A stretch of DNA of 46,858 nt from Candidatus Uhrbacteria bacterium (GCA_016209325.1 JACQWJ010000025.1:1-46858), one strand, 5' to 3'. Positions 5,242-37,139 are shown, counted from the first letter of the stretch. The notes: generated by a model from the sequence alone, not told the origin. Numbers and translations: made by a program.

Positions 5242-5354
5242 TAGATATTGATTCTTTTTCTGTAATCTGATACCTTTCCGTGTCGTTTTTAAGGCAGTTT
5301 AGCAAAATCAGAGAGTATGGTGTAATACCTTCCGTATTTATAACGACCTTGTGT

Positions 5355-5885
5355 GTGAGGAAACTCCAGGAACAACTACTGCTCCACCGCATACGGACTG
5401 CCAGAGATGAACAGGCATTCGCTGTCTTACACGAGTGCCATGTTTCTTCCTTGCGCCGTTTTCTTAACCTGAAGCTGCCAACGCCGCATGATGCGGATGA
5501 CGCTGTTTCGACCGTCTTCCTGCGACTGTGGAATTACCTCACGGACACGAAGGTTGAAAGCGTTTCTGGTCTTCTATTCACGATCGCTCGCGGCGTTGTG
5601 GCAGAATTCTATCGTCAGCGTAAGCCCGAACTCGTTGAACTTCCGTCCATGGACGAGTTTCCTGAACTGCATTCAGCATCCGTTCGTCAGACAGGGGAAG
5701 TCGCTCTTGTCCGTCGCGCCCTTGCCCACCTGAATGAAGACGAACAACAGGTAATCACCCTCCGATTTTTTGAGGGGTATTCCGTTCGCGAACTCGCTTT
5801 CCATTTTCAAAAGACGGAAAACGCCACTCGTGTGATGCTGCATCGGGCGCTGAAGTCGTTGCGCCGCATCTTTGACCCCCTATGA
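5355..5885 (+). CDS. ECF RNA polymerase sigma factor
   Basis: Region 2 (DADDAVSTVFLRLW...LFTIARG) and region 4 (VITLRFFEGYSVRELA...RVMLHRALKSLR). Start probably GTG 5355; the ORF is open from 5280. Confidence 0.9.
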   Translation: MRKLQEQLLLHRIRTARDEQAFAVLHECHVSSLRRFLNLKLPTPHDADDAVSTVFLRLWNYLTDTKVESVSGLLFTIARGVVAEFYRQRKPELVELPSMDEFPELHSASVRQTGEVALVRRALAHLNEDEQQVITLRFFEGYSVRELAFHFQKTENATRVMLHRALKSLRRIFDPL

Positions 5886-7045
5886 ATCAAAAAGACATTA
5901 TTGCGCTCTTGGAACGTGTGAAAGACGCTCCCGAATTGGGAGGCGGATTCGGCCGTCCCGAGATTGAAGCGCATTGGATCCAGCTTGCCAAACGTCTTGG
6001 CTTTTCCCACAGGACCCTGCGGCCGGCCGCTTTGTCTTGGAGAGATTATGTTTCGTATTTCAGTTCGACGTTCGCCTACGGCCTCCTGCGTCCGATGAGC
6101 GTCGGCATCTCCGCGTTCCTCCTCGCCTTTACCGGATGGGTCGCGACCGTCAACGCCTCGTTCGCGAGCGTTCCAGGCGACTTCCTCTATCCGGTCAAGC
6201 TCGCGACCGAACGCGTCCAACTCCTCCCCTGGCTCTCGAGCGACGAGCAGCGCATGCGTCTACATGCCGAATTCGCCAGCCGGCGTCTGGAGGAAGTCAT
6301 GGAGATCGCCGGCTCCGAACGTTCCGGCAAGGAGGTGCGGGTCCGTGAAGCGGTCGAAAGCTTCAAACACGAGATCGCCTCGATCAGCGCGGAATTGGAG
6401 ACAGTGACGACGAATCGTCCCGAGACGGTCGTCCAGATGGCCCGGGACGTCGACCGCAAGGTTGGAGAATACACTGCCGTCCTCGACCAGTCCCAAACCG
6501 ATCCATCCCTTGATGCTCACCGCCAGCAGGTCGAAGAGGTACGGACCATCGTCGAAGATGCTAAACAGCAGATTACCGAAACGTTTGTCTCAAACCACGA
6601 GACTGCCGAGGAGGAACAGACGACGCGCTACCTCCAATCCGCCTTCCAGCAGGATTTGGCCGACATCCGCCAGCGCATCAGCCAAAGCGAGGATCGCCTC
6701 CAGGCCGTCGAACGTGTGCTCTCGGCCCGGCCGGCGCTGGACGCGGAGGGCGCCCCGTACCATTCGGACATCGAAAACGTCCGCCACATCTTGGTCGGGT
6801 TCGATGGACCGTTGCGCGAGACGATGGACGCCTTTGCGGCCGGCGGATTCCGCCTCGTCCTCGACACCGTCAACGCGTTAAAGGCGGATTTGAACGAAGT
6901 GGAGCACACGATCGCTTCCATGGAAATCGACTTGACGACCAAGATCCAAGAAGAAGACCGGGTGGAATCGGCCGTCTCCCCGGAGGTGGGCGAGTCGACG
7001 GCGGAATCCCAGAACGGTTCCGTTTCTGCCGATTCCGTTCCGTAA
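5882..7045 (+). CDS. Putative anti-sigma factor with DUF5667-like domain
   Basis: Coupled to the ECF gene (ATGA overlap). Single TM, then SVPGDFLYPVKLATERV...FASRRLEE, then a long helical tail. Confidence 0.75.
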   Translation: MNQKDIIALLERVKDAPELGGGFGRPEIEAHWIQLAKRLGFSHRTLRPAALSWRDYVSYFSSTFAYGLLRPMSVGISAFLLAFTGWVATVNASFASVPGDFLYPVKLATERVQLLPWLSSDEQRMRLHAEFASRRLEEVMEIAGSERSGKEVRVREAVESFKHEIASISAELETVTTNRPETVVQMARDVDRKVGEYTAVLDQSQTDPSLDAHRQQVEEVRTIVEDAKQQITETFVSNHETAEEEQTTRYLQSAFQQDLADIRQRISQSEDRLQAVERVLSARPALDAEGAPYHSDIENVRHILVGFDGPLRETMDAFAAGGFRLVLDTVNALKADLNEVEHTIASMEIDLTTKIQEEDRVESAVSPEVGESTAESQNGSVSADSVP

Positions 7046-7050
7046 TCCGC

Positions 7051-7193
7051 ACAGGGATCTGGCGTTTCTCTGCGAGGACTTCCCGCCCGAAGGCGGAAGC
7101 GAGTCCCGGCAGAGAGACGTCAGCGTCTCTCACGTCCGTTTCGCGCGCAGCTGAAAGGTTGATCCGCCTCAGGCGGAGTTGCGCACACCCTGT
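7051..7193 (+). ncRNA. Candidate structured leader RNA of the S-layer-like gene
   Basis: Closing stem acaggg/ccctgt, 15-bp stem 7059-7073/7109-7123, second hairpin 7145-7184. Confidence 0.5.
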
Positions 7194-7250
7194 TTCTTAA
7201 AGGTTCATGCCGGCCTTGGGCATACAAAACAAGCAAGGCACTACACTCCT

Positions 7251-10200
7251 ATGACAGACGCGTTTAAACTCGGGAAGCGGGCACTCACGTCGTTCGTGGC
7301 CCTGGCGACGATCATTTCGTCGATCGGGATCTCGGCCCTCGTGGCTCCGCTCCAGGTCCGCGCGGCTTCGGCCGGCGACCTGATCAAGGGCACTACGCTC
7401 GCCACCCTGTACTACTACGCTGCGGACGGCAAGCGCTACACCTTCCCGAACGAAAAGACCTTCTCCACCTGGTACACTAACTTCAACGGCGTGAAGACGA
7501 TTTCCGACAGCGAACTGGCCGCCATTCCCTTGGCCGGCAACATCGTCTACCGCCCCGGCGTCCGCTGGATCAAGATCCAGAGCGATCCCAAGACCTACGC
7601 CGTGACCCCCCAGGGCAAGATCCGCTGGATCGAGTCCGAGGCGGTCGCCGTCGGCTTGGCGGGTTCCGACTGGAACACCATGATCGACGACGTCGCGGAC
7701 ACTTTCTTCGTCGACTACGCCCTCGGTTCCTCCCTCATGTCGGCCGCCGACGCCTTCAACGGCGCCCTCGTCACCATGAGCGGAACGAACTACCTGGTTT
7801 GGAACGGTCAAAAGCGCATGGTGACCTCGGAAGGCTCCAGCGCCAACTGGTTCCAGACTCGGGCTTGGCTTGACGGAACAGGCATCACGCTCGCCGGCCT
7901 CTCGGCCGGTTCGGACGTGACCGCCAAGGAATCCACCCTGACCGACGTCGCCCAGCTCGGGCAGACGGTCACTGGCGGCCTCTCGGTCAGCCTTGCTTCC
8001 GACACCCCGGCTTCAGCCACCATCCCGCAGGGCGCCGCTTCGGTTCCCTTCCTGAAGGTAAAGCTCATGGCCACTTCGGGTGACGTGACCATCGACCAGC
8101 TTGAGTTCAAGCTCGGCGGCGTGGGCGCGGTTTCGAACTTCGGCGACACCTACCTCTACAACGGGGACGTGCGCTGGACGGACGGCCGCTCCATCAACTC
8201 CTCGAGCCGTGTGGTGACGTTCGGCGCCTTGAACCTCAAGCTCAAGAGTGGCGAGACCAGCTACCTCACGCTCCGTGGTGACATCTCGACCACCGCCGTC
8301 GGCAGCGACACGGCGAACTTCTCGCTCGTGTCCACCAGCTCGGTGTCCGGCACGGCGACGGTTTCCGGCAACTTCCCGGTCACGGGCAACACCATGACCT
8401 TCTCGGAGACGGACGCTGGCACGCTCGTGGTTGACGCCTCGGGCAGCATCACCGATCCCACGATCGGCGAGGGCGACGCCACGATCGCCAAGTTCACCCT
8501 GGAAGCCGATGACGAGGATGCCTCAGTCGAGCGCATCACCCTCAACGTGGATGACGCTGGCGACCACAGCGACTTCAAGCTCTGGAAGAGCACCACGTTG
8601 TTGGCTTCTGGAACCGTCTCTAGCGACCTCGTGACCTTCGTCCTGAGCAGCCCGCTCAAGATCGACGAGGGCAACACGGAAACGCTGAAGGTGTCCGCGG
8701 ACATCGGCGGCGAATCCAACGACGTGGTCGCGATTGCGGTCGAGGAAGAGGCTGACGTTCTCGCCATAGGCGGTGACTTCGGCTTCAACATGTCGATTGA
8801 CATCACGGGCTACGATGAGACGGGAACCACCGCCTGCGCCACGAGCGCCGACGACTGCTCCCGGAGCGAAATCATCGGCGGCGAACTCACGTTCGCCTTC
8901 AACGGCCCGTCGTCCGACGACGTGTGTATCGACTGTAACGAGGAAGTCTTCTTCAAGTTCAAGTTGACCGCGGAGAACTGGACCGAAGTCAAGGAAATCC
9001 AGGTCCAGGTCGAGTGCGTTGCGGGTTCCGCTTCCGGCTGCGACGACGCAGCTGACAACGGGGACCTCTACAACGACGCGGCCGACGAGCCCAACCTCCA
9101 GGACATCAAGATCCGCAAAGTCGACAGCGGAACCACTTGGATGGGACCGGAAGAGCTTGACGACTCCGACGACACGCTCCAAACGCTGACGTTCAGTGAT
9201 GACCAAGTCATGACGGCTGGCACGACGCTCGACCTCGAGATCACCGCCGACGTCAACACCGATGCCATCGATGCCGACATCTACCAGTTCACCATCCTGA
9301 CCGATCAGGTGGTGGCCGAGGATGCCAACGGCGACGAACTGACGGCCGGCGAGGACATCATCCCGAGCGCGGACCTCGCGGGCAACGACTTCACGCTGAC
9401 CGACGCCGAAGTGACGGTGGACCTTTCGAGTCCGCCCTCCAGTGGCACCTACGTGAAGGGCGCCTCCAACGTTTCGGTGGTCGGCTTCACGTTTGACGCC
9501 GGCGATTCGTCCGACATCCTGATCGAAGAAGTCACCTTCGGCGCCATGGGCGACGACGACGGCTCCTTCACGGACGTCGACGAGGACCTCGACGTGGGCG
9601 ACTTCGTCCAGTCCTGCAGCATCTACGACAACGAGTCGGGCGCGCTCATTGACGGACCCGAGTCCGTGACGAGCGATGACGAAGTGCAGTTCGACAGCTT
9701 CAGCTGGACCATTGAGGCCGGCGAGAGCGACAAGCTGCTCCTCAAGTGCAACTTCGCCAACGTTGACAACGCCAGCGACACCAACGATGCGTTCGCCTTC
9801 TTCATCGCCTCTGCCGACGACATCGTCGCGCAGGATGAGGACGGCGACGAGATCGATGCCACCTTGGGCGACGACAACACCGACGGTGAAGTGGCGATCG
9901 CCATCACCGACGGCGGCACGCTCGCGATCAGCCAGGACGGTTCGACGGCCAAGTCGACCATCATCCTTGGCTCCTCGACTGGCGTGGCCATCTCCAAGTT
10001 CAAGTTCTCGGCGACCGACGAGCCGCAGATCGTGAAAACCATCAGCCTGCGCAACTGTGTGACGAGCGCGGTTGATGCCAACGACGACTGCGACGGCGAA
10101 GGTGACGAGACCGAAGGCGATGACGACATCGCCGCCAACGTGAAGGTCAGCTACCTCGACAAGGCCGGTGCCACCAAGACCAAGACAGGCTTCCTGTCGG

Positions 10201-11063
10201 GCGGCATGGTCACGTTCGAGAACCTCGACTTCTACGTTCCGACGAGCGGCACCCGCGTGCTCACCGTGACGGCGGACACGAACTCCGTGTCTTCCACTGG
10301 TGCGACCTCGGGCAGCGAATTCCAGCTCAACTTCGACGCTGAGACCACCGGAACCGCCGAATTCGAGGCGGTCGGTGAGGCTTCCGGCGAGAAGCTGACG
10401 GAGGCCGACGTGGACACCTACGTCTTGGGCAACAAGATGGAGATCCGCAAGACCAAGCTCACTATCGACAAGGCTTCCGGCAGCCCGTCGGGCGCCAGCG
10501 TCCCGGGCCTCTCCGAAGTCTTCCGCTTCAACGTCACGGCCGATTCCCGCGGATTCGTGCAGCTGAATGAGGTGATGTTCAAGGTCACCTCGACCGACGG
10601 CGTCGATTCCGACTGGAACACTTGCGCCAACATCGGCGTGGCTGGTGATTGGGAGCTCTACGACATCAACGACTCCTCCGAGAAGCTTGATGACGCAACC
10701 GACTACACGTTCCGTGAGTCCGACGGCTCCGCTTGCGAAGCCGGCGACGACCTCGCCTACGTGCACATCAACTTTGAGGGCAGCGCGACCAACCCGGCCG
10801 AGGAAATCGGCGCGGGCGAGACCAAGACCTACATCCTCCGCGCCGACACCACGGGTGCCGACACGAGCGAGGACGACTCGTTCCGCATCGACATTCCGGA
10901 CGAGTCCGAAGTTGACGCGCTCGCGACCTCGCTTGACGCGATCAGCTGGGAGGACGACGTCGAAGGCGCCGGTGCCGGTGCCGACGACGACGACGACTTC
11001 GGCGACATTGACGGCGAGTACGTGAAGAACTTGCCGGTCACCGGAGGCACCCTCGTGTACTAA
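7251..11063 (+). CDS. Large acidic S-layer-like surface protein
   Basis: Signal peptide from ATG 7251. Very D/T/S/G-rich repeated beta-sandwich units, strong C-ending codon bias, C-terminal VKNLPVTGGTLVY. Confidence 0.75.
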   Translation: MTDAFKLGKRALTSFVALATIISSIGISALVAPLQVRAASAGDLIKGTTLATLYYYAADGKRYTFPNEKTFSTWYTNFNGVKTISDSELAAIPLAGNIVYRPGVRWIKIQSDPKTYAVTPQGKIRWIESEAVAVGLAGSDWNTMIDDVADTFFVDYALGSSLMSAADAFNGALVTMSGTNYLVWNGQKRMVTSEGSSANWFQTRAWLDGTGITLAGLSAGSDVTAKESTLTDVAQLGQTVTGGLSVSLASDTPASATIPQGAASVPFLKVKLMATSGDVTIDQLEFKLGGVGAVSNFGDTYLYNGDVRWTDGRSINSSSRVVTFGALNLKLKSGETSYLTLRGDISTTAVGSDTANFSLVSTSSVSGTATVSGNFPVTGNTMTFSETDAGTLVVDASGSITDPTIGEGDATIAKFTLEADDEDASVERITLNVDDAGDHSDFKLWKSTTLLASGTVSSDLVTFVLSSPLKIDEGNTETLKVSADIGGESNDVVAIAVEEEADVLAIGGDFGFNMSIDITGYDETGTTACATSADDCSRSEIIGGELTFAFNGPSSDDVCIDCNEEVFFKFKLTAENWTEVKEIQVQVECVAGSASGCDDAADNGDLYNDAADEPNLQDIKIRKVDSGTTWMGPEELDDSDDTLQTLTFSDDQVMTAGTTLDLEITADVNTDAIDADIYQFTILTDQVVAEDANGDELTAGEDIIPSADLAGNDFTLTDAEVTVDLSSPPSSGTYVKGASNVSVVGFTFDAGDSSDILIEEVTFGAMGDDDGSFTDVDEDLDVGDFVQSCSIYDNESGALIDGPESVTSDDEVQFDSFSWTIEAGESDKLLLKCNFANVDNASDTNDAFAFFIASADDIVAQDEDGDEIDATLGDDNTDGEVAIAITDGGTLAISQDGSTAKSTIILGSSTGVAISKFKFSATDEPQIVKTISLRNCVTSAVDANDDCDGEGDETEGDDDIAANVKVSYLDKAGATKTKTGFLSGGMVTFENLDFYVPTSGTRVLTVTADTNSVSSTGATSGSEFQLNFDAETTGTAEFEAVGEASGEKLTEADVDTYVLGNKMEIRKTKLTIDKASGSPSGASVPGLSEVFRFNVTADSRGFVQLNEVMFKVTSTDGVDSDWNTCANIGVAGDWELYDINDSSEKLDDATDYTFRESDGSACEAGDDLAYVHINFEGSATNPAEEIGAGETKTYILRADTTGADTSEDDSFRIDIPDESEVDALATSLDAISWEDDVEGAGAGADDDDDFGDIDGEYVKNLPVTGGTLVY

Positions 11064-27161: not shown

Positions 27162-27884
27162 GTGACAGGTAATGAACAACCCCTCTTTACGTTGAACCTC
27201 GTGAGGCCACTTTTTGGATTTCTTCAGGTTGCGACGGATCTGCTCGGGGCCTTTCATCGACAGGAGAGCACCCAGGCGGCGGGAGACGAGGAGTTGGCCC
27301 GGCGGATGGGGGAAGGTGAACAGTCCGCCTTTGACCAGCTGTACGAGCGTTACTTTCAGAAAATCTACGCCTTCGTGTTCCGGCGCGTCAGTCACCGCGA
27401 GATTGCCGAAGACCTTGTCTCCGAGATTTTCCTCAAGGCGTTTACCCATCGCCGCGCGTTCGTCTGGAAGACGTCTTTTTCCGCCTGGATCTATCGCATC
27501 GCCGCCAACGCGGTCACGGACCATTACCGCACGAAGAAGACTGCTGACGAGCTCGACGATTCCCATCCCGACCATGCTGCAGGGCGTGCAGCGCTCAACG
27601 AGGCAGTCGACCGCTCGCTTCTCGGCATCCAGCTCGAGCGTGTGCTTGAGCTTCTGCAGGAGCGCGAACGTCTGGCCGTGACGCTCAAGTTCTACGCCGA
27701 ATGCACCAATCAAGAGATCGCCGAAGCCTTGAAGTGCACTCCCAACAACATCGGGGTCATCCTTCATCGCGCCCTCAAGCGCTGCGCATCTCTTGCGCCT
27801 CCCGAGCTCAGACGCATGATGGAGACCGTCATTGGTCAGGAAGGCGCCATCTTGTCGGCAGCCGATGCGCGCAGAAGCCCCTAG
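27162..27884 (+). CDS. ECF RNA polymerase sigma factor
   Basis: AFDQLYERY, AEDLVSEIFLKAF, FSAWIYRIAAN, region 4 QEIAEAL...LHRALKR. Start uncertain. Confidence 0.92.
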   Translation: MTGNEQPLFTLNLVRPLFGFLQVATDLLGAFHRQESTQAAGDEELARRMGEGEQSAFDQLYERYFQKIYAFVFRRVSHREIAEDLVSEIFLKAFTHRRAFVWKTSFSAWIYRIAANAVTDHYRTKKTADELDDSHPDHAAGRAALNEAVDRSLLGIQLERVLELLQERERLAVTLKFYAECTNQEIAEALKCTPNNIGVILHRALKRCASLAPPELRRMMETVIGQEGAILSAADARRSP

Positions 27885-27896
27885 TGTTTACCCCTT

Positions 27897-30800
27897 ATGC
27901 ATTTCCCCAATTTGAGACGAGACCGTAATGAAGATCCTTCGCCGTCGTTGGAACAAGGCGTAGGCGGGCTTTTGGACCGCCAAGCTAAGTCCATTGACGT
28001 TTCGCCGCGACCGGGGTTCAAGGAGGCGCTGCATATGCGCCTTTCGGAAGCCTGGCAGGCATCCCATATGTCTTCTCGTTTTTCTCTTTCGGCCCTGCTT
28101 GCGGGGCCGCAGCGCCGCCTGGCCACCGCGGGCGTCACCGCCCTCGTGCTCGTCGTCGTCGCGAGTCTCGTGCTCCAGCCATTCTTTGGTGTACAGACCG
28201 TTTACGCCTTTGACAGTTTCACCCTCACACCGGAACAGTCGGACGCGCTCGGTATCGCATCCGATACGTCTTTTATTCTTGAGAGCCGTCAGAAGGTGAG
28301 CGTGGCGGACGTGAAGGACAAGCTCGCGCTCAACGTCGCGACTCCCTATACCCTTGATCAGGTTTCGGCCAAGCAGATCCGTCTCGCGTTCGACGAGCCT
28401 CTCCCGGCCGCGAAAGTCGTCAGCGTCAAGCTCCAGACAACTGCCACCGACCCGACGGGTCAGGAAGTTTCTCGTCCCTACTCCTGGGCCTTCCAGGTGA
28501 AGAGTCCATTCCGAATTTTAAATACGATTCCCGGCAAGGAATCTTCCGAAGTTCCCTTGGACGCGGGGATCGAAATCAATTTCAGCCATGAGAACGTCGA
28601 TCCGGAAGCCTTTGCCAACGCGTTTCACGTCGTTCCCGAGGTGAAGGGCCACGTCGAGCATTCCCGGCGCGCGTTCGTGTTCGTGCCCGAGCAGCCGCTT
28701 GCCCCAGAGACCGTTTATTCCGTGACGATCGACGGGTCGCTCGCCCCGAAGGGCAGCGCCGAGGTCCTGGGAGAGGACTACGCGTTCCAGTTTGAGACGT
28801 CCCCGAACAACGCCGAGCGCGGCTTTGATTTTTCCCTCCAGCAGCGCTATCTGACGGTCACGTCTTCCCAGGACGTGTTCGTTCCCTACTCCTCCTACTG
28901 GGGAAACGATTCCATTGGCACGGCACACGCCAAGGTCTATCGCTTCCTCGACGCCGACCAGGTGTCCGCCTTTGACCGTTACGTAGCCGCCGTGCAGAAG
29001 GGACAGGAAGTGGATTGGACCCAGTTCTCAACCCCCGAAGGTATTGCCGACTTTTCACAGCTTTCCCTGGTTGCCGAATTTGACGCGACGGACGTCGCCC
29101 GGAACTGGCAGCATTACCTTCTCTTTCCCCAGCCCTTGGAATCCGGCTATTACCTCGCGGACATCGAAGCCAAGGGCAAGCGCCAGTGGCTTCTCATCCA
29201 GTCAAGCGACCTGACCGCCTACGTCGCCAAGGCGACCGACCGTACCCTCTTCTGGGTGAACCGCGCATCCTCCCACGCGTCCGTTGAGGGTGCACAGGTA
29301 AAATTTACGGGAGACGTCCAGACTGCCGCAACCGGCCCGGATGGAATCGCCTACGTTTCCGCCGAAGGCCGCCTTACGAAGGATTACGTCGCTCCCAAGC
29401 TGGCCGAAATCCGTCATGGGGAAGACGCAATTGTCCTGTCCCTCGACGAGGGATGGATGCCCTATGCCACGAAGGCCGGATGGGACAAGCGGATCGGTCC
29501 GGTTTCGGATCCGCGCTCGGACTATTGGAGCTACGTCTATACGGACCGGCCCATGTACCAGCCTTCTGACACGATTCAGGTCTGGGGCTATGCCGAACGC
29601 CGGACGACCGGCGAACACCCGAAGACGGTGCGCGCCTGGATCGGTCAGCCATCCTGGTGCGATTTCAACGACCCCTCCTGCGGAACGTCCGACATTGTGT
29701 TCGACGAAATCGACCTCCCCGTGACCGAGCGTGGCACGTTCGAAGGGACACTGAAGATCTCGGGAATCAATCCTGGCTATTACGACCTGAAGATCGAATC
29801 CGGAGAAGACGAAATAACCATGCGTGGCGTCCAAGTGACCGAGTATGTGAAGCCCGCGTATACACTTTCCATTGTTCCTGATGTCAAAGCAGCCTTTGCC
29901 GGGGACGCGGTCGGATTTACTGTCCATGGGGAATTCTTCGAGGGAACCCCGGTCAAGAACATGCCCGTCCGCGTTGAGAGCGAGCTCGGCACCCAGGTGG
30001 TGACCTTGGACGAGACAGGCAATGCCCGCGCGACGCTCGCGTTTCCCTACGACTCATCCAACCTCGAATGGCGCTATCCGCGCACCATGTGGATCAATGT
30101 GTCTCCAGATCGTCCAGAAGAGGGAAACATTCAAGCCGGAACCAGCCTGGCTTTGTTCGGACCAAAGGTCTATCTCGACATTCCCTGGGAGCAGGCCAAG
30201 ATCAAGGATGGAACCGGCAGGGTCGAGGTGACCGCCCGGACCGTGGAGCCCTCCGACTCCTGGGATCCGAAGGAATTCGCCCCGTCGGTTCGTCCCGGTC
30301 AGGCGATCCGCGGTGAGGTGGTCGAGATTACCTACGTCCGTCGCGAAATCGGGACGACCTACGACTTCATCCGCAAGCAGACCGTCACCCGGTATGCCTA
30401 CGACCGCAAGGAGGCCAAGATTGCGGACGTCTCTTTGGTAACGGGCGCGGATGGCAAGGCAGGTTATGCATTCCCCATCCGGAACCCCGAAGCCAACTAC
30501 AAGGTGATCCTCTTTGCGTCGGACGAAAATGGCCGTACCGACCGGACTGAGACCTACGTCTGGCAGGACCACCAATTTGAGTACGAGGATCATGCCTTGC
30601 GGTTTACTAACGAAGAGCAGGAAGCCGATCCTCAGCAATTCAAGGGCTATGGGGAAAATCAGACAGTCCATCTGCGCGTCGACTTGGGAGGCAAGCCGTT
30701 TGCCGTACCCGCAGAAGGAACGTTCCTCTATTTCCAGGCCCAACGCGGCATTCAGGAAACGTCCGTCACCCATGGAGGGCGCTACGAATTCCTCTACGAA

Positions 30801-33185
30801 ACGAGGGATATTCCGAACGTGTCCGCCTTCGGCATTTTCTTCGACGGCCGCGGCTATGCCGAGGTTGGGGGAAACGACATTGGCATCTGGGGGTTCATGG
30901 GGACCCAGGGATATGACGTTTCCTACGACCAATCCTTAAACGAGCTGACAGTGGACGTGTCCTCCGACCGCGACGCCTACCGTCCCGGAGAGGAAGCTGT
31001 TGTCTCCGTTTCGCTCAAGGACGTTCAGGGTAATCCCGTGTCCGCCGAAGTGAACCTGAACGTCGTGGACGAGGCGTTTTATGCGCTGACTCCCGAGGAC
31101 GTCGATCCCCTTGGCGAACTCTTTCGCCACGTCGAGAGCGGGATTTTGGCAACGCAGGTGACCCAGAAAGCCGAGGCGTTTGCCATGAACGGTGCCGAAG
31201 GCGGAGGCGGGGGAGACCGGGGACGCTTCGTCTTCAAGGACACCGCCGCTTTTGCGACAGTCGTCACGGACCAGGAGGGAAAGGCGCAATACCGCTTCAC
31301 GCTGCCCGACAACATCACGTCGTGGCGCGTCACGGCCCAGGCCATCGAACCGAACCGTAAGCTGGCGGGAGACGCTGTGGCCAACGTGGACGCCACCCTG
31401 CCGTTCTTCCTAAGCCCAGTCATGCGGAATTCGTACTTGGACGGCGACCAGCCGACGATCCTCGTACGCGCCGCCGGCACCGACGTGCGTCCTGCCGACT
31501 TCGTCGCCTACACGATTCGCGTCCCGGACGCGAAGATCGAAGAGACGCGCCAGGCCGCTGCTGGTGACACCCTGCGCTTTGACCTTCCGGATCTCGCGAT
31601 CGGTCCCCATGAGATTACCGTCTCCGGAACCACGGGCACGTTGAAGGATACGGTCACGCGGACCGTTCTGATTGTCTCTTCGCGTCTCGTAAAGCCCGTC
31701 ATTGCGAAGACCGTGCTCGACGGAACGAGATCGATCGAAGGCGCTTCCGACCGTCTGACGTACGTCACGTTTCTCGATGGCAACCGCGGACGGTATTATC
31801 CCGATCTCTCGGGAATGGCCAGCACGTACGGCGATCGCGCCGATGAAGCGGCGGTTCGCGTCATGGCAACCGAACTCTTGAACAAGGAATTTGGGGAAAC
31901 CAACCCGATTCCCGAAATCGTCGCGCAGAATTACCAGGGGCTGGGTATCCGTCTCTTGCCCTATGCCGACGAGGATTTCGACCTGACCGCCAAAGTCGCC
32001 CTGTTCGGGGAAACGCCGTTTGACGAGAAGAACCTGGAGTTCTACTTCCGCAACCGTTTCGATGCCCGTGCAACGGGTTCCGAACCTCTGGACGCGGGAC
32101 AGGCCGCCAAGGCTTACGCCGCCCTGGCGGGCCTCGGAGTTCCCGTCCTGGCCGAGCTTCAGCGGTTCGCGGAAACGCCGGATCTGGATACGGAGTCCCG
32201 CATCTACGTCGCCTTGGCTCTGCACCTCCTCGGCGACAGCGAAGGTGCGCGGACGCTGTATCGCTCGCTCACAAAGGAATTGACCAAGGAATTGGGATAC
32301 GCCTATGTTCCCGCCGAGCACGTCGAGACGTCGGTTGAGCAGACATCCTTGATGGCCATTCTCGCCGGCGGATTGGCAGAACCCGAACGCGACGCGCTCG
32401 CGGATTACGTCTGGAGGCAACCGCACGGCAACACGCTTATCGCTCTCGAACAGCTTCTGTTCATCCGTGAATCCATGAAGGCGTTTCCGGCCGGATCCGT
32501 CACGGTCGCCTACACGCTGGGCGGGGAACGTCAGCGCGCCACGCTGGAGCGCGGGCAGTCGAAAACGGTCATTGTGCCGGCTGGTCAGCTCTCTGGACTG
32601 TCCGCCATGGCCGAGAAGGGAACGGTGCTCGCAGTCAGTCGCTACGAGACCCCACTCGTCGATCCGAACGAGCCGGTCGAGGACCGCCTGGTCCTCCGCC
32701 GCAGCTATGCGGCTGTGGGCGGCGCATCCGGCACGTCCTTCCGCGAGGGCGACCTCATCCGGGTCAGCGTCCAGTACGACGTCCCGCCGTCAGGTAACAC
32801 GGTCGACCTCTCGCCTCAGCCCATCGAGTTCATGGAAGAAGGGCTGTATCCGTCCCCGTCTCCCGCGAATACCGCTCCGTTTGAGACGTACCAGATTACC
32901 GACGTCCTGCCGTCCGGGCTGGCCGCCGTTACCGAACCTTCCTTCATGTACGTCGACGTCAAAGGCTGCGTCGATTATCCCTACCAGGTCTTCAACCAGC
33001 GCGTGTCATTCTTCGTGACCAACGACCGCATCGTCGATTCCGCCTGCGGGAACAATACGCTCACCTACTACGCCCGCGTCGTTACGCCCGGCGTCTACGT
33101 CGCCGAGCCCGCGTACATCCGCCTGGAGCGGGATCCGTCGATCCATAACCATTCGGAGCAGGCTACGATAACCATCGTTGAATAA
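27897..33185 (+). CDS. Alpha-2-macroglobulin family protein with N-terminal putative anti-sigma domain, TM and Ig-like domains
   Basis: YTDRPMYQPSD (MG2), EYVKPAY, LPDNITSWRVTAQA (A2M), YYARVVTPGVY (C-terminal). N-terminal PRPGFKEALHMRL followed by a TM. Confidence 0.88.
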   Translation: MHFPNLRRDRNEDPSPSLEQGVGGLLDRQAKSIDVSPRPGFKEALHMRLSEAWQASHMSSRFSLSALLAGPQRRLATAGVTALVLVVVASLVLQPFFGVQTVYAFDSFTLTPEQSDALGIASDTSFILESRQKVSVADVKDKLALNVATPYTLDQVSAKQIRLAFDEPLPAAKVVSVKLQTTATDPTGQEVSRPYSWAFQVKSPFRILNTIPGKESSEVPLDAGIEINFSHENVDPEAFANAFHVVPEVKGHVEHSRRAFVFVPEQPLAPETVYSVTIDGSLAPKGSAEVLGEDYAFQFETSPNNAERGFDFSLQQRYLTVTSSQDVFVPYSSYWGNDSIGTAHAKVYRFLDADQVSAFDRYVAAVQKGQEVDWTQFSTPEGIADFSQLSLVAEFDATDVARNWQHYLLFPQPLESGYYLADIEAKGKRQWLLIQSSDLTAYVAKATDRTLFWVNRASSHASVEGAQVKFTGDVQTAATGPDGIAYVSAEGRLTKDYVAPKLAEIRHGEDAIVLSLDEGWMPYATKAGWDKRIGPVSDPRSDYWSYVYTDRPMYQPSDTIQVWGYAERRTTGEHPKTVRAWIGQPSWCDFNDPSCGTSDIVFDEIDLPVTERGTFEGTLKISGINPGYYDLKIESGEDEITMRGVQVTEYVKPAYTLSIVPDVKAAFAGDAVGFTVHGEFFEGTPVKNMPVRVESELGTQVVTLDETGNARATLAFPYDSSNLEWRYPRTMWINVSPDRPEEGNIQAGTSLALFGPKVYLDIPWEQAKIKDGTGRVEVTARTVEPSDSWDPKEFAPSVRPGQAIRGEVVEITYVRREIGTTYDFIRKQTVTRYAYDRKEAKIADVSLVTGADGKAGYAFPIRNPEANYKVILFASDENGRTDRTETYVWQDHQFEYEDHALRFTNEEQEADPQQFKGYGENQTVHLRVDLGGKPFAVPAEGTFLYFQAQRGIQETSVTHGGRYEFLYETRDIPNVSAFGIFFDGRGYAEVGGNDIGIWGFMGTQGYDVSYDQSLNELTVDVSSDRDAYRPGEEAVVSVSLKDVQGNPVSAEVNLNVVDEAFYALTPEDVDPLGELFRHVESGILATQVTQKAEAFAMNGAEGGGGGDRGRFVFKDTAAFATVVTDQEGKAQYRFTLPDNITSWRVTAQAIEPNRKLAGDAVANVDATLPFFLSPVMRNSYLDGDQPTILVRAAGTDVRPADFVAYTIRVPDAKIEETRQAAAGDTLRFDLPDLAIGPHEITVSGTTGTLKDTVTRTVLIVSSRLVKPVIAKTVLDGTRSIEGASDRLTYVTFLDGNRGRYYPDLSGMASTYGDRADEAAVRVMATELLNKEFGETNPIPEIVAQNYQGLGIRLLPYADEDFDLTAKVALFGETPFDEKNLEFYFRNRFDARATGSEPLDAGQAAKAYAALAGLGVPVLAELQRFAETPDLDTESRIYVALALHLLGDSEGARTLYRSLTKELTKELGYAYVPAEHVETSVEQTSLMAILAGGLAEPERDALADYVWRQPHGNTLIALEQLLFIRESMKAFPAGSVTVAYTLGGERQRATLERGQSKTVIVPAGQLSGLSAMAEKGTVLAVSRYETPLVDPNEPVEDRLVLRRSYAAVGGASGTSFREGDLIRVSVQYDVPPSGNTVDLSPQPIEFMEEGLYPSPSPANTAPFETYQITDVLPSGLAAVTEPSFMYVDVKGCVDYPYQVFNQRVSFFVTNDRIVDSACGNNTLTYYARVVTPGVYVAEPAYIRLERDPSIHNHSEQATITIVE

Positions 33186-33187
33186 GC

Positions 33188-35062
33188 ATGGATCGCCAAC
33201 GCCTCACAACCGCGGCGTGGATCATCGGAGGGACGCTCGTCGTCCCTCTGTTGCTTTTGCTGCCTTGGCTTCCGCGTCTGTGGGGATCCTCCGTCCATCC
33301 GACGCTCGTATCCGTTTCTGAGGAAGGACTCCCGTCCAAACCCTTCGCATTTTCGCCGCGCACGTTTCAGGTAGACAACATCGAAGGCATTGGCATGGTC
33401 CTGCGAGCTGCCAAGGAAGTGAGCGTGCCGGCTTCGTCCGAATCAGCGTCCGTCTCCGCCGCCGTCCTGCCCCACCACACGCTGCTCGGGAAACAGCTGG
33501 CGGAACAGTGGTCGTCCATCGCCGCCTCGACACGCCCTTCCGTCATCGTTCTGATTGGTCCAGCCCATCAGAATCAGGGAAGAGCATTGGTTCAGACGAC
33601 GCGCGGCGTCTGGAAAACTTCGGTCGGCAGCGTGTCGACCGCGGACGCCGCCGTCCTGGCCCTCGTGTCTTCCGGCGTTGTTTCGGAAGAGCCGGACTCG
33701 TTTGAAAACGAGCACAGCGTCGGTGCCCATGTTCCGTATTTGGCCAAACTGTTCCCAGGCGTCCCGATCATCCCCATCATCGCCAAGTCGCCGGCAGAAG
33801 AGTTTTCCGCTCGGAAGCTCGTGACGGCCTTGGAAGACATCCTGCCTTCCGACGCCCTGGTCGTCTCAAGCATCGACTTCTCGCACGGCCTCCGCGCCGC
33901 ACAGGCGGACGCCAAAGACGCGGAGACCCTGTCGCTTGTATCTCAGCGGGATTACGCTCAGATCGACGGCCTCAGCTCGGAATATCTGGACTCCCCGTTT
34001 GCGCTCGACGCGTATCTGTTGTGGATGGACATGCAAGGCGCACAGGATCGGCTCGTGTGGCAGGAACATAGCGGGCGCATCCTTCAGGATCCGACGCTTC
34101 CCGGCACGAGCTACCTGGTCTTTTTCGCCAGACTCCTTTCCGAGGAACCGCTGACCCTAACCGCCGTCGGCGACCTCATGTTGGCGCGGAGCGTCGCGAC
34201 ATGGCTGGCTCAGACGACCGTCGAAGACGCATTCGGACCTGCACGCGATACCCTCGCGGGTTCTGATTTTGTTTTCGGCAATTTGGAAAGCGTCCTATCC
34301 ACGTCTTCGATCGACATCCCAAAGGAGATTCGTTTTAAGGCGGATCCGGCCAGAGTGGACGCGTTGACCTATGCGGGGTTCACCCATCTGTCCGTTGCGA
34401 ACAATCACATCGGCGATTACGGGGAAGCCGCCTGGCAGGAATCCTCGGAACATTTGCGCGCAGCGGGGATCGAGCCGGTGGGCGGCTACCGCAACGACGG
34501 ACCTATCGTCATTGCGGAGGCAAACGGCCGTAGCGTCGCCTTCCTGGCGTTTGAAAGCCTGATCCGGCCGGTCGTTCCCGAGGAAGTGTCCCGTCAGGTC
34601 CAAGCAGCCGCAACGCAGGCCGACCTCGTGATCGCTTCCTTCCATTGGGGAGTCGAATACCAGCATCTGCCGCACGCGAGTCAAATCACGCTGGCCCACG
34701 CTGCGATCGACGCCGGCGCGGACCTCGTCATTGGTCACCATCCCCACGTCCTTCAGGGCATCGAGACCTACAAGGACGGTCTCATCCTCTACTCTCTCGG
34801 CAACTTCGTCTTCGACCAGTTCGGCGAGGACGAGAACGAGACCGTCGTGGCCAAGATTCGGTGGGAGGGCCTCGCCCGTAGGCAAAATGAGGCTACGGCC
34901 GATGGAAAGAAGCGAACGGTAGAATTGATCCCCATGCGCATCGAACGGGGATTCCCCCGGCCCACCATCGGCACCGAACGCGCGTACACCCTCAACAGCC
35001 TCGCCTCCTGGTCCGCCTCCGACCTCGCGGACGCGTTGAAGAGTGGGATGGTGGCGTGGTGA
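33188..35062 (+). CDS. AmmeMemoRadiSam protein B (Memo-like) / CapA-family metallophosphatase fusion
   Basis: LPHH, GPAH, EHSV, SSIDFSH (Memo); GDLML, GNLES, ANNHIGD, HWGVEY, GHHPH, YSLGNFVFD (CapA). N-terminal TM. Confidence 0.9.
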   Translation: MDRQRLTTAAWIIGGTLVVPLLLLLPWLPRLWGSSVHPTLVSVSEEGLPSKPFAFSPRTFQVDNIEGIGMVLRAAKEVSVPASSESASVSAAVLPHHTLLGKQLAEQWSSIAASTRPSVIVLIGPAHQNQGRALVQTTRGVWKTSVGSVSTADAAVLALVSSGVVSEEPDSFENEHSVGAHVPYLAKLFPGVPIIPIIAKSPAEEFSARKLVTALEDILPSDALVVSSIDFSHGLRAAQADAKDAETLSLVSQRDYAQIDGLSSEYLDSPFALDAYLLWMDMQGAQDRLVWQEHSGRILQDPTLPGTSYLVFFARLLSEEPLTLTAVGDLMLARSVATWLAQTTVEDAFGPARDTLAGSDFVFGNLESVLSTSSIDIPKEIRFKADPARVDALTYAGFTHLSVANNHIGDYGEAAWQESSEHLRAAGIEPVGGYRNDGPIVIAEANGRSVAFLAFESLIRPVVPEEVSRQVQAAATQADLVIASFHWGVEYQHLPHASQITLAHAAIDAGADLVIGHHPHVLQGIETYKDGLILYSLGNFVFDQFGEDENETVVAKIRWEGLARRQNEATADGKKRTVELIPMRIERGFPRPTIGTERAYTLNSLASWSASDLADALKSGMVAW

Positions 35063-35105: not shown

Positions 35106-35159
35106 CTGCGCGGCCGCAAGGTGCGGTCGCAAGTTAACACCAAAGAAAGGAGGTACCCA

Positions 35160-37139
35160 ATGGGACCTCGAAAGAAGAGAGCGACATGGCTGTCGCTTTG
35201 GTTTTTCTTCCTGTATCTGGCAATAATGGTGGTCGGATGCGGCGGTGCACGTCAGCAGGTCCGATACGACGGACTGGCCCCCACGGCCGCACCCTCGACG
35301 GTGCCGTCGGTGAAGGAGGTCTACGACGCCGTCGGTTGGAGTCAGCCGCAGGACTGGTGTCGGGATGGAAGCATGTTGTTTTTATCCGGCGTGGCTCTCG
35401 ATCTCCAGTACGAACCGTTGGAGGCAGACCAGGTATTTCGTCGTGATCCGATCACTGGACTCTACGAGCGCCTGACCAACTTCCCGAGTCCGGCGAGAAG
35501 CGCGACTTGTTCTCCAGTCGATCCAGATCAGATCATTATCACGACGTCAAACAACGGCACGGAAAACGACGAGGTCTGGCTCTGGGATGACGGGAACCTC
35601 CGAGCTCTGACCAACAACCCGGAGAAGATCTACGCCTTCAGTGGATGGTCGCCGGATGGTACGCGTATCCTCGTTTCGACCAATGAGGATGACGTGAAGG
35701 CCTATCACGTCAAGGTAATGGACCTCGCAACCGGATCGATGACTTCGATCTTTGCTCGGGACAAGTGGAATTTCGGGGTGGGTTGGTCACCCGATGGGAA
35801 GTACGCCATTGTCAGCCGGTTGGAGAGCCAGGAGGATTCAAACATCTATCTGGTTGACCCCATGACGGGTGCGGCCACACTCGTAACTCCGCATGATAAT
35901 CCGACTCTCTTCACGAGCCCAACTGTCTCGCGGGATGGTCAGATGATGTACGTGTGCACGAACGCCGGGTTTAATACCACCTACCTGGCGCGTATCGACC
36001 TGACGGATTCCACGTATCCTCTCACCACCCTCTTTCAAGAGCTGAACGTCGAATTTGAGGGATATCATCTTCCCCAAAATGGCGTTTGGGAGGATGAGGA
36101 GTGGATGACGCTGTCGTGGAACCGGGGGGGGAGTCGGGTCGTGGAGATTCGCAACCTGCGGAACGGGGGAGATATCCATAGTCCGGATCTCCCTCCGGGA
36201 CTGGCGGGCGGGTTCATTGAGAGTTGGGACAGTCGACGTTTCCTGTTCTCCTACAGCGGTACGCACCCCAGGGATGCGTACCTGTACGATCTTGAGACGA
36301 AGGGTACGGATCGATTCCTCAACACCTCTCCTCGTCTGGACGAGCTCGTGCCCAGGATGAATGTTGAGCTCGTACACTATACCGGGTATGGAGGACAGCT
36401 GATCCCTGCATTCCTCTATACTCCTGCCGGTTTCCAACGCGATGGGACCAGCAAAGTAATTCTGATGGTCCATGGAGGACCCAACGGTCAACACCGACCG
36501 ACGCATTCCGTATTCATCCGCTATGCCCTCGCAAAGGGTTTCGCGGTTCTGGCCCCAAATGTCCGGGGCAGTACTGGGTACGGCAAAGACTGGCTGGACG
36601 CGGACAACATTGAAAAGCGTCCGGTGGCGTTGACAGACACACTCTTGGCCTGGAATTTCCTGGTCGAGCAGAGGATCGCCCATCCCAAACGCATCGTCAT
36701 AGAGGGAGGGTCGTACGGTGGCTTCGTTGCGGCCTATATGGCGACCTTTTATCCAGGTCATTGGGCGGCCGCCGTCAATGCGGTCGGGATCGTCAATTTT
36801 TTCACCTTCTTCCAGAATACGAGACCGGATAGAGTGGTATACCGGACACAGGAGTACGGTCATCCGGAGGAGGATCGGGAGCTGCTCAGACAGCTTTCTC
36901 CCTACTTCAAGATCTTTGAGACTGGACTCTGTACGTCACCCATGCTCATTCTCCACGGCCGGAACGATCCGCGGGTTCCGGTGGGCGAAGCCGAGCAGAT
37001 CGCGCAGGTTCTCCAAGATCGCGGCTGTCCGGTTGAGCTCCGGATCAACGAGGACGAGGGTCACGGCTCGGCAAAGCGGACCAACTGGGTCGCAGACGAT
37101 ACGCTCATTTTTGACTTCCTGGACAAGTACGTCCAATGA
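35160..37139 (+). CDS. S9 family (prolyl oligopeptidase/acylaminoacyl peptidase) lipoprotein
   Basis: Lipobox-like VVGC, WSPDG propeller repeats, HGGP, GGSYGG, DPRVP, EGH. Confidence 0.92.
   Translation: MGPRKKRATWLSLWFFFLYLAIMVVGCGGARQQVRYDGLAPTAAPSTVPSVKEVYDAVGWSQPQDWCRDGSMLFLSGVALDLQYEPLEADQVFRRDPITGLYERLTNFPSPARSATCSPVDPDQIIITTSNNGTENDEVWLWDDGNLRALTNNPEKIYAFSGWSPDGTRILVSTNEDDVKAYHVKVMDLATGSMTSIFARDKWNFGVGWSPDGKYAIVSRLESQEDSNIYLVDPMTGAATLVTPHDNPTLFTSPTVSRDGQMMYVCTNAGFNTTYLARIDLTDSTYPLTTLFQELNVEFEGYHLPQNGVWEDEEWMTLSWNRGGSRVVEIRNLRNGGDIHSPDLPPGLAGGFIESWDSRRFLFSYSGTHPRDAYLYDLETKGTDRFLNTSPRLDELVPRMNVELVHYTGYGGQLIPAFLYTPAGFQRDGTSKVILMVHGGPNGQHRPTHSVFIRYALAKGFAVLAPNVRGSTGYGKDWLDADNIEKRPVALTDTLLAWNFLVEQRIAHPKRIVIEGGSYGGFVAAYMATFYPGHWAAAVNAVGIVNFFTFFQNTRPDRVVYRTQEYGHPEEDRELLRQLSPYFKIFETGLCTSPMLILHGRNDPRVPVGEAEQIAQVLQDRGCPVELRINEDEGHGSAKRTNWVADDTLIFDFLDKYVQ

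Follow-up and report, generated by a model that had tools for sequence, protein, structure and literature searches.

A thioester-less alpha-2-macroglobulin-like surface protein with a putative anti-sigma tail, encoded beside an ECF sigma factor gene in Candidatus Uhrbacteria and other bacteria

Anti-sigma factors with varied sensor domains are known; CnrY is a small protein that works with a separate sensor. Bacterial alpha-2-macroglobulin (A2M)-like proteins are usually seen as passive protease traps of Gram-negative periplasms. Here, we describe a locus in a 46,858-nucleotide stretch of a Candidatus Uhrbacteria genome (GCA_016209325.1, JACQWJ010000025.1:1-46858; the window) in which a gene for a sigma factor of the extracytoplasmic function (ECF) type is followed by a gene for a single-pass, thioester-less A2M-like surface protein, and in which the cytoplasmic tail of the latter probably serves as the anti-sigma element. 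The window is contig C18 of a 766-kb genome in 37 contigs; its coordinates are used throughout, and all listed features lie on the + strand (Table 1). Three described systems come closest. In RsiV of B. subtilis, as set out in parts of PMC4183432, ligand binding to the ectodomain of the anti-sigma factor exposes a site at which signal peptidase makes a first cut, and intramembrane proteolysis follows. CnrY is classed as a class II anti-sigma factor with a two-helix cytoplasmic part in sections of PMC7406223, and MagD of P. aeruginosa is, according to portions of PMC5764988, a thioester-less type II A2M that traps protease after bait cleavage.

Compared with these systems, the locus shows both likeness and difference. 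Like SigV-RsiV, it would comprise a single-pass anti-sigma factor encoded next to its ECF sigma factor, and the RsiV ectodomain is a receptor for an attacking enzyme; however, RsiV binds lysozyme via a small ectodomain of another fold (from parts of PMC4183432), whereas the protein described here has a 1660-aa A2M-like body, and no sequence similarity between the tail protein and RsiV was found. With CnrH-CnrY it shares a short two-helix cytoplasmic part followed by a membrane helix, and the lengths (from the sections of PMC7406223 noted above) are compatible with the modelled helices of the tail, but there is no detectable sequence similarity and the tail is fused to a giant ectodomain. MagD has a comparable multi-domain A2M-like body with a bait-region domain, lacks CxEQ and is associated with the cytoplasmic membrane, but it is a periplasmic protein of Gram-negative bacteria encoded in the six-gene mag operon (both from portions of PMC5764988); the protein here has its own N-terminal helix anchor and ECF and CapA-like neighbours, and occurs in Patescibacteria, Chloroflexota and Bacillota. 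The type I A2Ms (E. coli YfhM/ECAM and the Salmonella protein) supply the best profile and fold matches (4u48, 4ziq and 4ziu); unlike them, this protein has no thioester, is not a lipoprotein, and has a partner other than pbpC. Our literature search found no link of type I A2Ms to a sigma factor and no work connecting anti-sigma factors and alpha-2-macroglobulin, and the main text and part of one supplement of PMC7826278 contain none of the terms 'macroglobulin', 'A2M' and 'MG2 domain', while the remainder of that supplement might list such context. In databases, the relatives are named 'Ig-like domain-containing protein', 'alpha-2-macroglobulin family protein' or 'hypothetical'. We regard the ECF-linked, tailed A2M-like protein as a candidate new sensor variant within the known anti-sigma principle, with an unusually clear comparative signal.

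The tail itself is well defined. The only hydrophobic segment in all 1762 residues (the sole segment with a hydropathy mean of at least 1.6) covers residues ~75-97 and has QRR on its N side, which places residues 1-74 in the cytoplasm and the remainder outside; a cytoplasmic N-terminus of ~75 residues with one membrane helix had been noticed in the preliminary description and was confirmed at 74 residues. The same tail is present in all of the 18 closest database relatives (36-55% identity), with R38, K42, E43, A44, L45 and R48 invariant in 19/19 and R28, P39, G40, F41 and M58 nearly so, and it is conserved as protein across residues 28-56. Since the codons of P-R-P-G-F-K-E-A-L differ at synonymous positions between loci, selection has acted on the protein and the tail is real coding sequence. 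The objection that translation begins downstream at the Met of MSSRF, which would leave no cytoplasmic domain, is thus answered. AlphaFold2 (AF2) modelling on 19 tail sequences gave a mean predicted local distance difference test (pLDDT) score of 68, rising to ~95 over residues 41-50, with helices at 16-32 and 41-61. This model suggests a class II (CnrY-like) architecture, namely a short two-helix cytoplasmic segment before one membrane helix, as a likeness of architecture only. The tail does not resemble the four-helix class I anti-sigma domain (ASDI, zf-HC2 / RskA), to which it has no family match and from which its model of two main helices differs.

Evidence for a link between the tail and the sigma factor comes from comparison of relatives. 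One genome per species was scanned. Of 606 confirmed relatives, 77 loci were retained for analysis; these belong to Patescibacteria, Chloroflexota (Dehalococcoidia, Chloroflexia and Limnocylindria), Bacillota and one Actinomycetota bin. Open reading frames (ORFs) were called for each locus and searched with the four ECF proteins of the genome and then with a hidden Markov model (HMM) built from the matches; at 18 loci, an ECF gene was present whose end lay between -67 and +248 nt relative to the earliest in-frame start codon of A2M. After removal of members with a cut N-terminus, fewer than 1400 aa or less than 700 bp of upstream sequence (L050, L059, L060 and L067), 58 rows including the window were left, in which a tail was called long when the first membrane helix lay at residue 64 or later. 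All 19 rows with an upstream ECF gene had a long tail and none a short one, while rows lacking such a gene comprised 36 short tails and three long ones. In a FastTree phylogeny of the ectodomains, the ECF-linked rows were split among at least four positions (the Uhrbacteria-type clade, L044, L030 with L053, and three Clostridia), which requires 6-7 changes. The same association was found in a second sample of 300 Patescibacteria genomes drawn evenly, 28 of which had a relative at E <= 1e-20; upstream regions were taken from 19 of the 21 genomes with E <= 1e-70 (the weakest, G293, at 2.2e-89; G165, at a contig end, and G110 were left out), and 18 could be evaluated. In 10 of these 18, of which one is L044 sampled again, an ECF gene lay directly upstream and the membrane helix was never found before residue 64; in the other eight, which had no ECF gene, it was never found beyond residue 47. 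The adjacency expected from the preliminary description is thus conserved, and it tracks the long tail. A Mantel comparison of sigma and tail distances gave an r of 0.85, with 0 of 2000 permutations as high, and was rejected as evidence because linked genes share history.

Within the locus, the ORF of the A2M-like protein begins 12 nt after that of the sigma factor, as first described, and in five orthologous loci its start overlaps the sigma stop as ATGA; co-transcription of the two genes seems likely from this arrangement. No other candidate anti-sigma gene was found between the two genes or elsewhere in the locus. The tail is therefore the sole candidate inhibitor, it is present together with an adjacent sigma gene, and its two-helix build fits class II, which is why we read the locus as an ECF sigma / anti-sigma pair in which the two tail helices (residues ~16-61) act as the anti-sigma element and belong to an A2M-like surface protein that crosses the membrane once and has no thioester. 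We consider this reading as a whole probable, and the anti-sigma role of the tail, taken by itself, at least as probable or slightly more so.

The sigma protein is an ECF (group 4) sigma-70 factor by domain content and family HMM. It has sigma domains 2 and 4 only (Pfam Sigma70_r2, 3.1e-15; Sigma70_r4_2, 1.8e-13) and exceeds the cut-off of the TIGR02937 sigma70-ECF model (101.7 vs 42.9 bits), while no named equivalog reached its cut-off, the best being the BldN family (117.5 vs 206). ECF promoters are of the AAC ... CGT type, and two sites of the form GTAAT-N16-CGTT, P1 and P2, accompany the two genes. At the P1 place, GTAA[CT]-N16/17-CGTT occurs in 11/13 orthologous loci, with the one-base variants GTAAG (L007) and GTTAT (L013), and the motif is also present in 6/6 distant ECF-A2M loci as CGTT or CGTA. 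Since P1 lies inside the listed sigma ORF, the real start must be downstream of GTG 27162, where it had first been placed, and is probably GTG 27201, 8 nt past the P1 -10 element. P1 would fit an autoregulatory ECF promoter, with recognition by the adjacent sigma factor being putative. P2 is conserved in 12/14 orthologous loci and is also found in L030, L053, L093 and L100, with a weakened form (ATAAT-N16-CGTT) in L015; the conserved 'RNE...SL' residues of the protein alignment are explained by P2 being embedded there. An in-frame ATG lies 7 nt past the P2 -10 element in three loci, and the window has a TTG at +22. In the window, the pattern occurs three times against 0.37 expected, a count reached by 2/100 shuffles.

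Several further observations concern the sigma gene and its promoters. The sigma factor has a ~35-residue N-terminal extension ahead of domain 2 (27201-27305) with a conserved D-[LF]-L-G-x-F stretch, and the third codon positions of 'DLLG' vary between loci, so the extension is coding; in several orthologs a canonical start codon is missing ahead of this stretch, or the only one stands very near the predicted transcript start. Just upstream of P1, positions 27036-27140 hold a ~105-nt element with inverted ends (GTCATCC ... GGATGAC), which has nine partial copies elsewhere in the genome and resembles a small dispersed repeat, and a similar inverted-end element lies ahead of P1 in L044. A search of 26800-28100 against Rfam gave no match, and a scan for terminators and sigma-70 promoters gave nothing above shuffles. 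The nearly invariant M58 of the tail (28068-28070) lies 115-121 nt past the P2 -10 element in orthologs, and L011 lacks both P2 and this Met. A short isoform translated from M58 on a P2 transcript was set aside: no ribosome-binding sequence is conserved there, and in 12/14 loci translation could start in frame at a codon located after P2 and ahead of the motif.

A number of results weigh against reading the locus as a sigma / anti-sigma pair. The similarity of the tail to known anti-sigma domains, which was looked for by three routes, was not found: Pfam gave no relevant family for seven ECF-linked N-termini at E values up to 10; a tail profile against the Protein Data Bank (PDB) gave ten weak, unrelated matches, none of them an anti-sigma factor; and in a protein atlas the best score of residues 1-105 was 0.75, below the meaningful level, to a cluster that is 39% zf-HC2. 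A search of 1.84 billion representatives with the tail profile gave 21 matches (13 full-length A2M-like proteins, six fragments running into the same ectodomain, and two uninformative short fragments), none of them on another type of protein, so other anti-sigma factors do not share this tail as a module. The idea of the tail as the anti-sigma part is supported in that the tail is real, conserved and tracks the adjacent ECF gene, and no known anti-sigma domain was found in it by these searches. The pairing also has exceptions. Three long-tailed members have no ECF gene (L049, L069 and L079), and in L015, a member of the Uhrbacteria-type clade, just the last ~30 codons of the sigma gene remain (1611-1858) and uvrC adjoins the A2M gene; this loss is secondary, and L015 retains the tail motif. 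When independent pairs were counted, five went the same way, none the opposite way and one was a tie, for which the underpowered sign test gave just p ~0.06. As for the promoters, the genome-wide count of five in 766 kb is near a rough base-composition estimate of ~6-7, so their case rests on position and conservation and not on enrichment. In addition, the neighbouring ECF gene at 5280-5885 has GTAAT-N17-CGTT upstream, so the two sigma factors may share promoters and either may read P1 and P2.

The ectodomain belongs to the alpha-2-macroglobulin / complement superfamily by its macroglobulin, bait-region and A2M domains and its thioester-domain fold, in agreement with the A2M body first noted. 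A profile of 19 relatives against the PDB matched Salmonella A2M (4u48, 5.6e-14) and E. coli YfhM (1.5e-12) as well as 4ziq, human A2M and insect TEP1, whereas phmmer with the whole protein gave no match among PDB sequences; NCBIfam gave no family for the whole protein. The AF2 model of residues 1117-1762 (pLDDT 89.3; predicted template modelling score, pTM, 0.82) has a beta / helical-toroid / beta layout, in keeping with a helical thioester domain set between CUB halves and with an MG domain at the C-terminus, and its best Foldseek match was 4ziu (E. coli A2M from MG7 to the C-terminus, 6e-26), followed by 5a42 and 4u48, in a range of 6e-26 to 4e-25. The thioester column holds no Cys in 19/19 close and 56/56 wider relatives, so that the CxEQ motif of type I A2Ms is absent; a bait region combined with a missing thioester is a feature shared with type II A2Ms (MagD/YfaS). 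Of the two Ig-like domains in the preliminary description, the Big_5 domain at residues 203-301 passes the threshold, and the other (residues ~116-200) falls below it, though it is plausible. The Gly-rich bait-like segment is present at residues 1091-1110, with five Gly and not four as first given, and its variable part is only about a dozen residues long. The model overlays protease-activated E. coli A2M better (template modelling scores of 0.57 for 4ziq and 0.53 for 4rtd) than the native form (0.33-0.34), which is weak evidence that may merely reflect a preference of the predictor.

One subgroup of the family carries a Hint / PT-HINT domain of ~135 aa placed precisely within the invariant AE-GGGGG loop, after window residue ~1104. 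The carriers are P0023, P0024, P0032, P0036 and P0063, together with the split matches G245, G293, G132, G048, G259, G020, G064, G082 and G234. The first residue of the inserted domain is a Cys immediately behind GG, and its last two are HN, with D or A next; since C, S or T does not stand after HN, the domain is not like a canonical splicing intein, and from its sequence it more closely resembles a self-cleaving (bacterial intein-like, BIL-like) module that sits where an A2M, here one lacking the thioester, has its bait.

The gene next to the A2M-like gene is also conserved. A PGA_cap homolog immediately follows the A2M-like gene in 46 of the 63 loci that extend 900 bp or more downstream; this was seen in all phyla, and the two genes often overlap by 4 nt. 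By gene order, the A2M-like and PGA_cap genes are a conserved pair in Patescibacteria, Chloroflexota and Bacillota alike. L077 and L080, as well as the Uhrbacteria-type loci, have a fusion of Memo and PGA_cap as the partner. Neither pbpC nor mag genes adjoin the A2M-like gene; its neighbours are the ECF sigma gene and the Memo + PGA_cap gene instead. As in the pair of type I A2M and PBP1c, the arrangement is that of a guard plus an envelope enzyme, with a PGA_cap protein as the partner, and the combination of A2M with a CapA-like protein adds a new equivalent to the 'defence and repair' pair known for A2M and PBP1c.

Based on these results, we propose the following mechanism, in which the binding of sigma by the tail, its proteolytic release and the trigger are all conditional. 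The tail would sequester the sigma factor at the membrane, and the freed sigma factor would read both GTAAT-N16-CGTT promoters. P1 would drive the sigma gene together with the A2M gene, the two being coupled in translation, giving positive and negative feedback, and P2 would drive only the A2M gene and the CapA-like gene, adding output; from these targets, the main output of the switch would be the sensor protein itself and its partner. Release would most likely occur by regulated intramembrane proteolysis, with a first cut at V-Y-A and a second by an RseP-type protease, and the first cut would be allowed or prevented by the A2M ectodomain, depending on whether this is intact or has been cut and rearranged. 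We infer this release from the conserved V-Y-A site and the two proteases encoded, with RsiV as precedent. In 14/14 orthologs, the membrane helix is followed by V-[YF]-A or by a small-x-small motif equivalent to it; small-x-small sites lie at the same place in Clostridial ECF-linked members, and the short-tailed members from Firmicutes carry ordinary signal peptides at this point, with small-x-small sites before the first ectodomain strand. The genome encodes a Peptidase_M50 of the RseP type (G000:C32:15300-16316, 6e-63) and a signal peptidase S26 (C17:1695-2162, 1e-40), so the parts for such proteolysis, an M50 site-2 protease and a site-1 activity, are encoded, with cleavage at V-Y-A being predicted. 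A trigger linked to proteases can be put forward only tentatively; attack on the A2M body is plausible because the thioester-less MagD traps protease after bait cleavage (in portions of PMC5764988).

We also propose, as a rather speculative extension, that the A2M-like protein may be a single-use guard whose membrane anchor doubles as the anti-sigma factor, making it a stoichiometric 'consumption meter' of extracellular proteolytic attack. An outside protease would cut or rearrange the guard, the signal-peptidase site would be exposed, and an RseP-type protease would remove the stub; exactly one sigma factor would be freed per guard, and the guard and its CapA-like partner would be re-made from P1 and P2. 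Such a meter would have been gained and lost repeatedly in lineages without an outer membrane (Patescibacteria and Clostridia).

Other explanations have to be weighed against the tail as an anti-sigma element released by membrane-proximal proteolysis. One, put forward in the preliminary description, is that proteases from outside attack the bait-like stretch in the region of residue 1100 and the A2M rearrangement alone frees the sigma factor, so that the protein is a protease receptor. The A2M_BRD and A2M domains and the thioester-domain fold are present, the trapping of protease by MagD without a thioester (portions of PMC5764988) is in favour, and the closeness of the 1117-1762 model to activated E. 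coli A2M may be weakly so; however, the thioester is absent from 56/56 family members, the short variable bait part ends in an invariant loop, and after a cut 1000 residues away from the membrane, the remaining part of the ectodomain would be too large for intramembrane proteolysis, so a second, membrane-proximal cut would be needed. We think this explanation rather doubtful, and the membrane-proximal signal-peptidase-like site may offer a more concrete release route than a bait cut at ~1100. It is somewhat less likely still that the locus holds a regulator and its target only, in which the sigma factor controls the A2M/CapA-like operon and the tail serves export, retention or another partner and not inhibition. 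The failure of Pfam and the PDB profile to detect an anti-sigma domain, P2 as a mark of the A2M gene as a direct target, and the three long-tailed members with no nearby ECF gene all agree with it, but a long tail in every ECF-linked member and in almost no other is not expected of a mere target gene, and the locus offers no alternative anti-sigma gene.

The remaining two explanations change the nature of the tail. If it were the extended n-region of a cleavable signal peptide, cut constitutively at V-Y-A, the sigma factor would be held only while the precursor waits for export, and its activity would report export flux and not a signal from outside. The ordinary signal peptides of the short-tailed Firmicutes members, with their small-x-small sites at the same place, would agree with this, as would the signal peptidase and M50 protease encoded, but the 23-residue hydrophobic stretch is long for the h-region of a signal peptide, and an inhibitor that is constitutively destroyed, together with a self-activating P1, would run away unchecked; we consider it quite improbable. 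Hardly credible is the explanation that the tail is not made at all and that translation from M47 or M58 yields a plain signal-anchored A2M. AAGGAGG stands 8 nt ahead of the M47 ATG, the Met at 58 is nearly invariant, and P2 lies upstream of both; however, AAGGAGG merely forms the codons of the invariant F-K-E-A, no Shine-Dalgarno-like sequence ahead of M58 is conserved among orthologs, residues 28-56 are conserved as protein with synonymous changes, and the upstream ATG shares bases with the sigma stop in five loci.

The gene order on the + strand around the locus is uvrA, a NUDIX gene, uvrC, the ECF sigma ORF, the A2M-like ORF, the Memo-like + PGA_cap gene and an S9 peptidase gene, of which the last is not conserved among related loci. 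Each of the other three ECF genes of the genome is trailed by a gene for a membrane protein with a short cytoplasmic N-terminus. For example, the second ECF gene of the window (5280-5885) is followed by a DUF5667 membrane protein (5882-7045) and a secreted-looking 1294-aa ORF (7179-11063) with no Pfam family, ahead of which the third copy of GTAAT-N16-CGTT lies at 7042. The closest relatives in databases bear the names Candidatus Uhrbacteria and Patescibacteria. The stretch is present in four DNA runs from one groundwater study, and no RNA run was listed for it.

Table 1. Positions in the window of the sigma and A2M-like genes, their predicted elements and the genes downstream.
Feature	Position	Strand	Basis or remark
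ECF sigma ORF as listed	27162..27884	+	240 aa
P1, ECF-type promoter GTAAT-N16-CGTT (putative)	27169..27193	+	exact pattern match, upstream of sigma gene
ECF sigma gene, probable start	27201..27884	+	GTG 27201, first in-frame start after P1
A2M-like / anti-sigma-like membrane protein gene	27897..33185	+	1762 aa
Cytoplasmic tail, residues 1-74	27897..28118	+	modelled helices 16-32 and 41-61
P2, ECF-type promoter GTAAT-N16-CGTT (putative)	27925..27949	+	within first codons of A2M-like ORF
Conserved motif PRPGFKEAL..RL and helix 2, proposed sigma-binding helix	28005..28079	+	residues 37-61
Single transmembrane helix, N-in	28119..28187	+	residues ~75-97
Candidate site-1, signal-peptidase-I-like V-Y-A before F	28200..28211	+	7 residues past membrane helix; A104 invariant
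Probable first Ig-like (Big_5) domain, below threshold	28242..28496	+	E 2.6e-4, 22.1 vs 23.6 bits, residues ~116-200
Big_5 Ig-like domain	28503..28799	+	Pfam 1.4e-12, residues 203-301
MG2 macroglobulin domain	29532..29804	+	Pfam, residues 546-636
A2M bait-region domain (A2M_BRD)	30651..31088	+	Pfam, residues 919-1064
Bait-like stretch	31149..31226	+	short variable part, then invariant AE-GGGGG-DR loop, residues 1085-1110
A2M (MG7) domain	31245..31460	+	Pfam, residues 1117-1188
Helical thioester-domain-like region	31785..32477	+	residues ~1297-1527; AF2 helices 181-411 of segment, Foldseek matches to A2M and complement chains
Thioester-site equivalent, SVEQ without Cys	32331..32342	+	alignments of relatives
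Membrane-anchored Memo-like + PGA_cap (CapA-like) protein	33188..35062	+	Pfam; 624 aa, N-terminal membrane helix
S9 peptidase	35121..37139	+	downstream of Memo-like + PGA_cap gene

In conclusion, the locus belongs to a large unnamed branch of the A2M family in bacteria without an outer membrane, and in roughly one third to one half of those studied here, the protein would be coupled to a sigma factor via its own N-terminal tail. If the tail is indeed an anti-sigma domain, it would be a new sensor type for ECF signalling, and it would provide a testable route by which very small, host-dependent bacteria may detect proteolytic attack on their surface. The sigma factor, the anti-sigma tail and the promoters P1 and P2 would then form a compact set that can be tested in a laboratory host.

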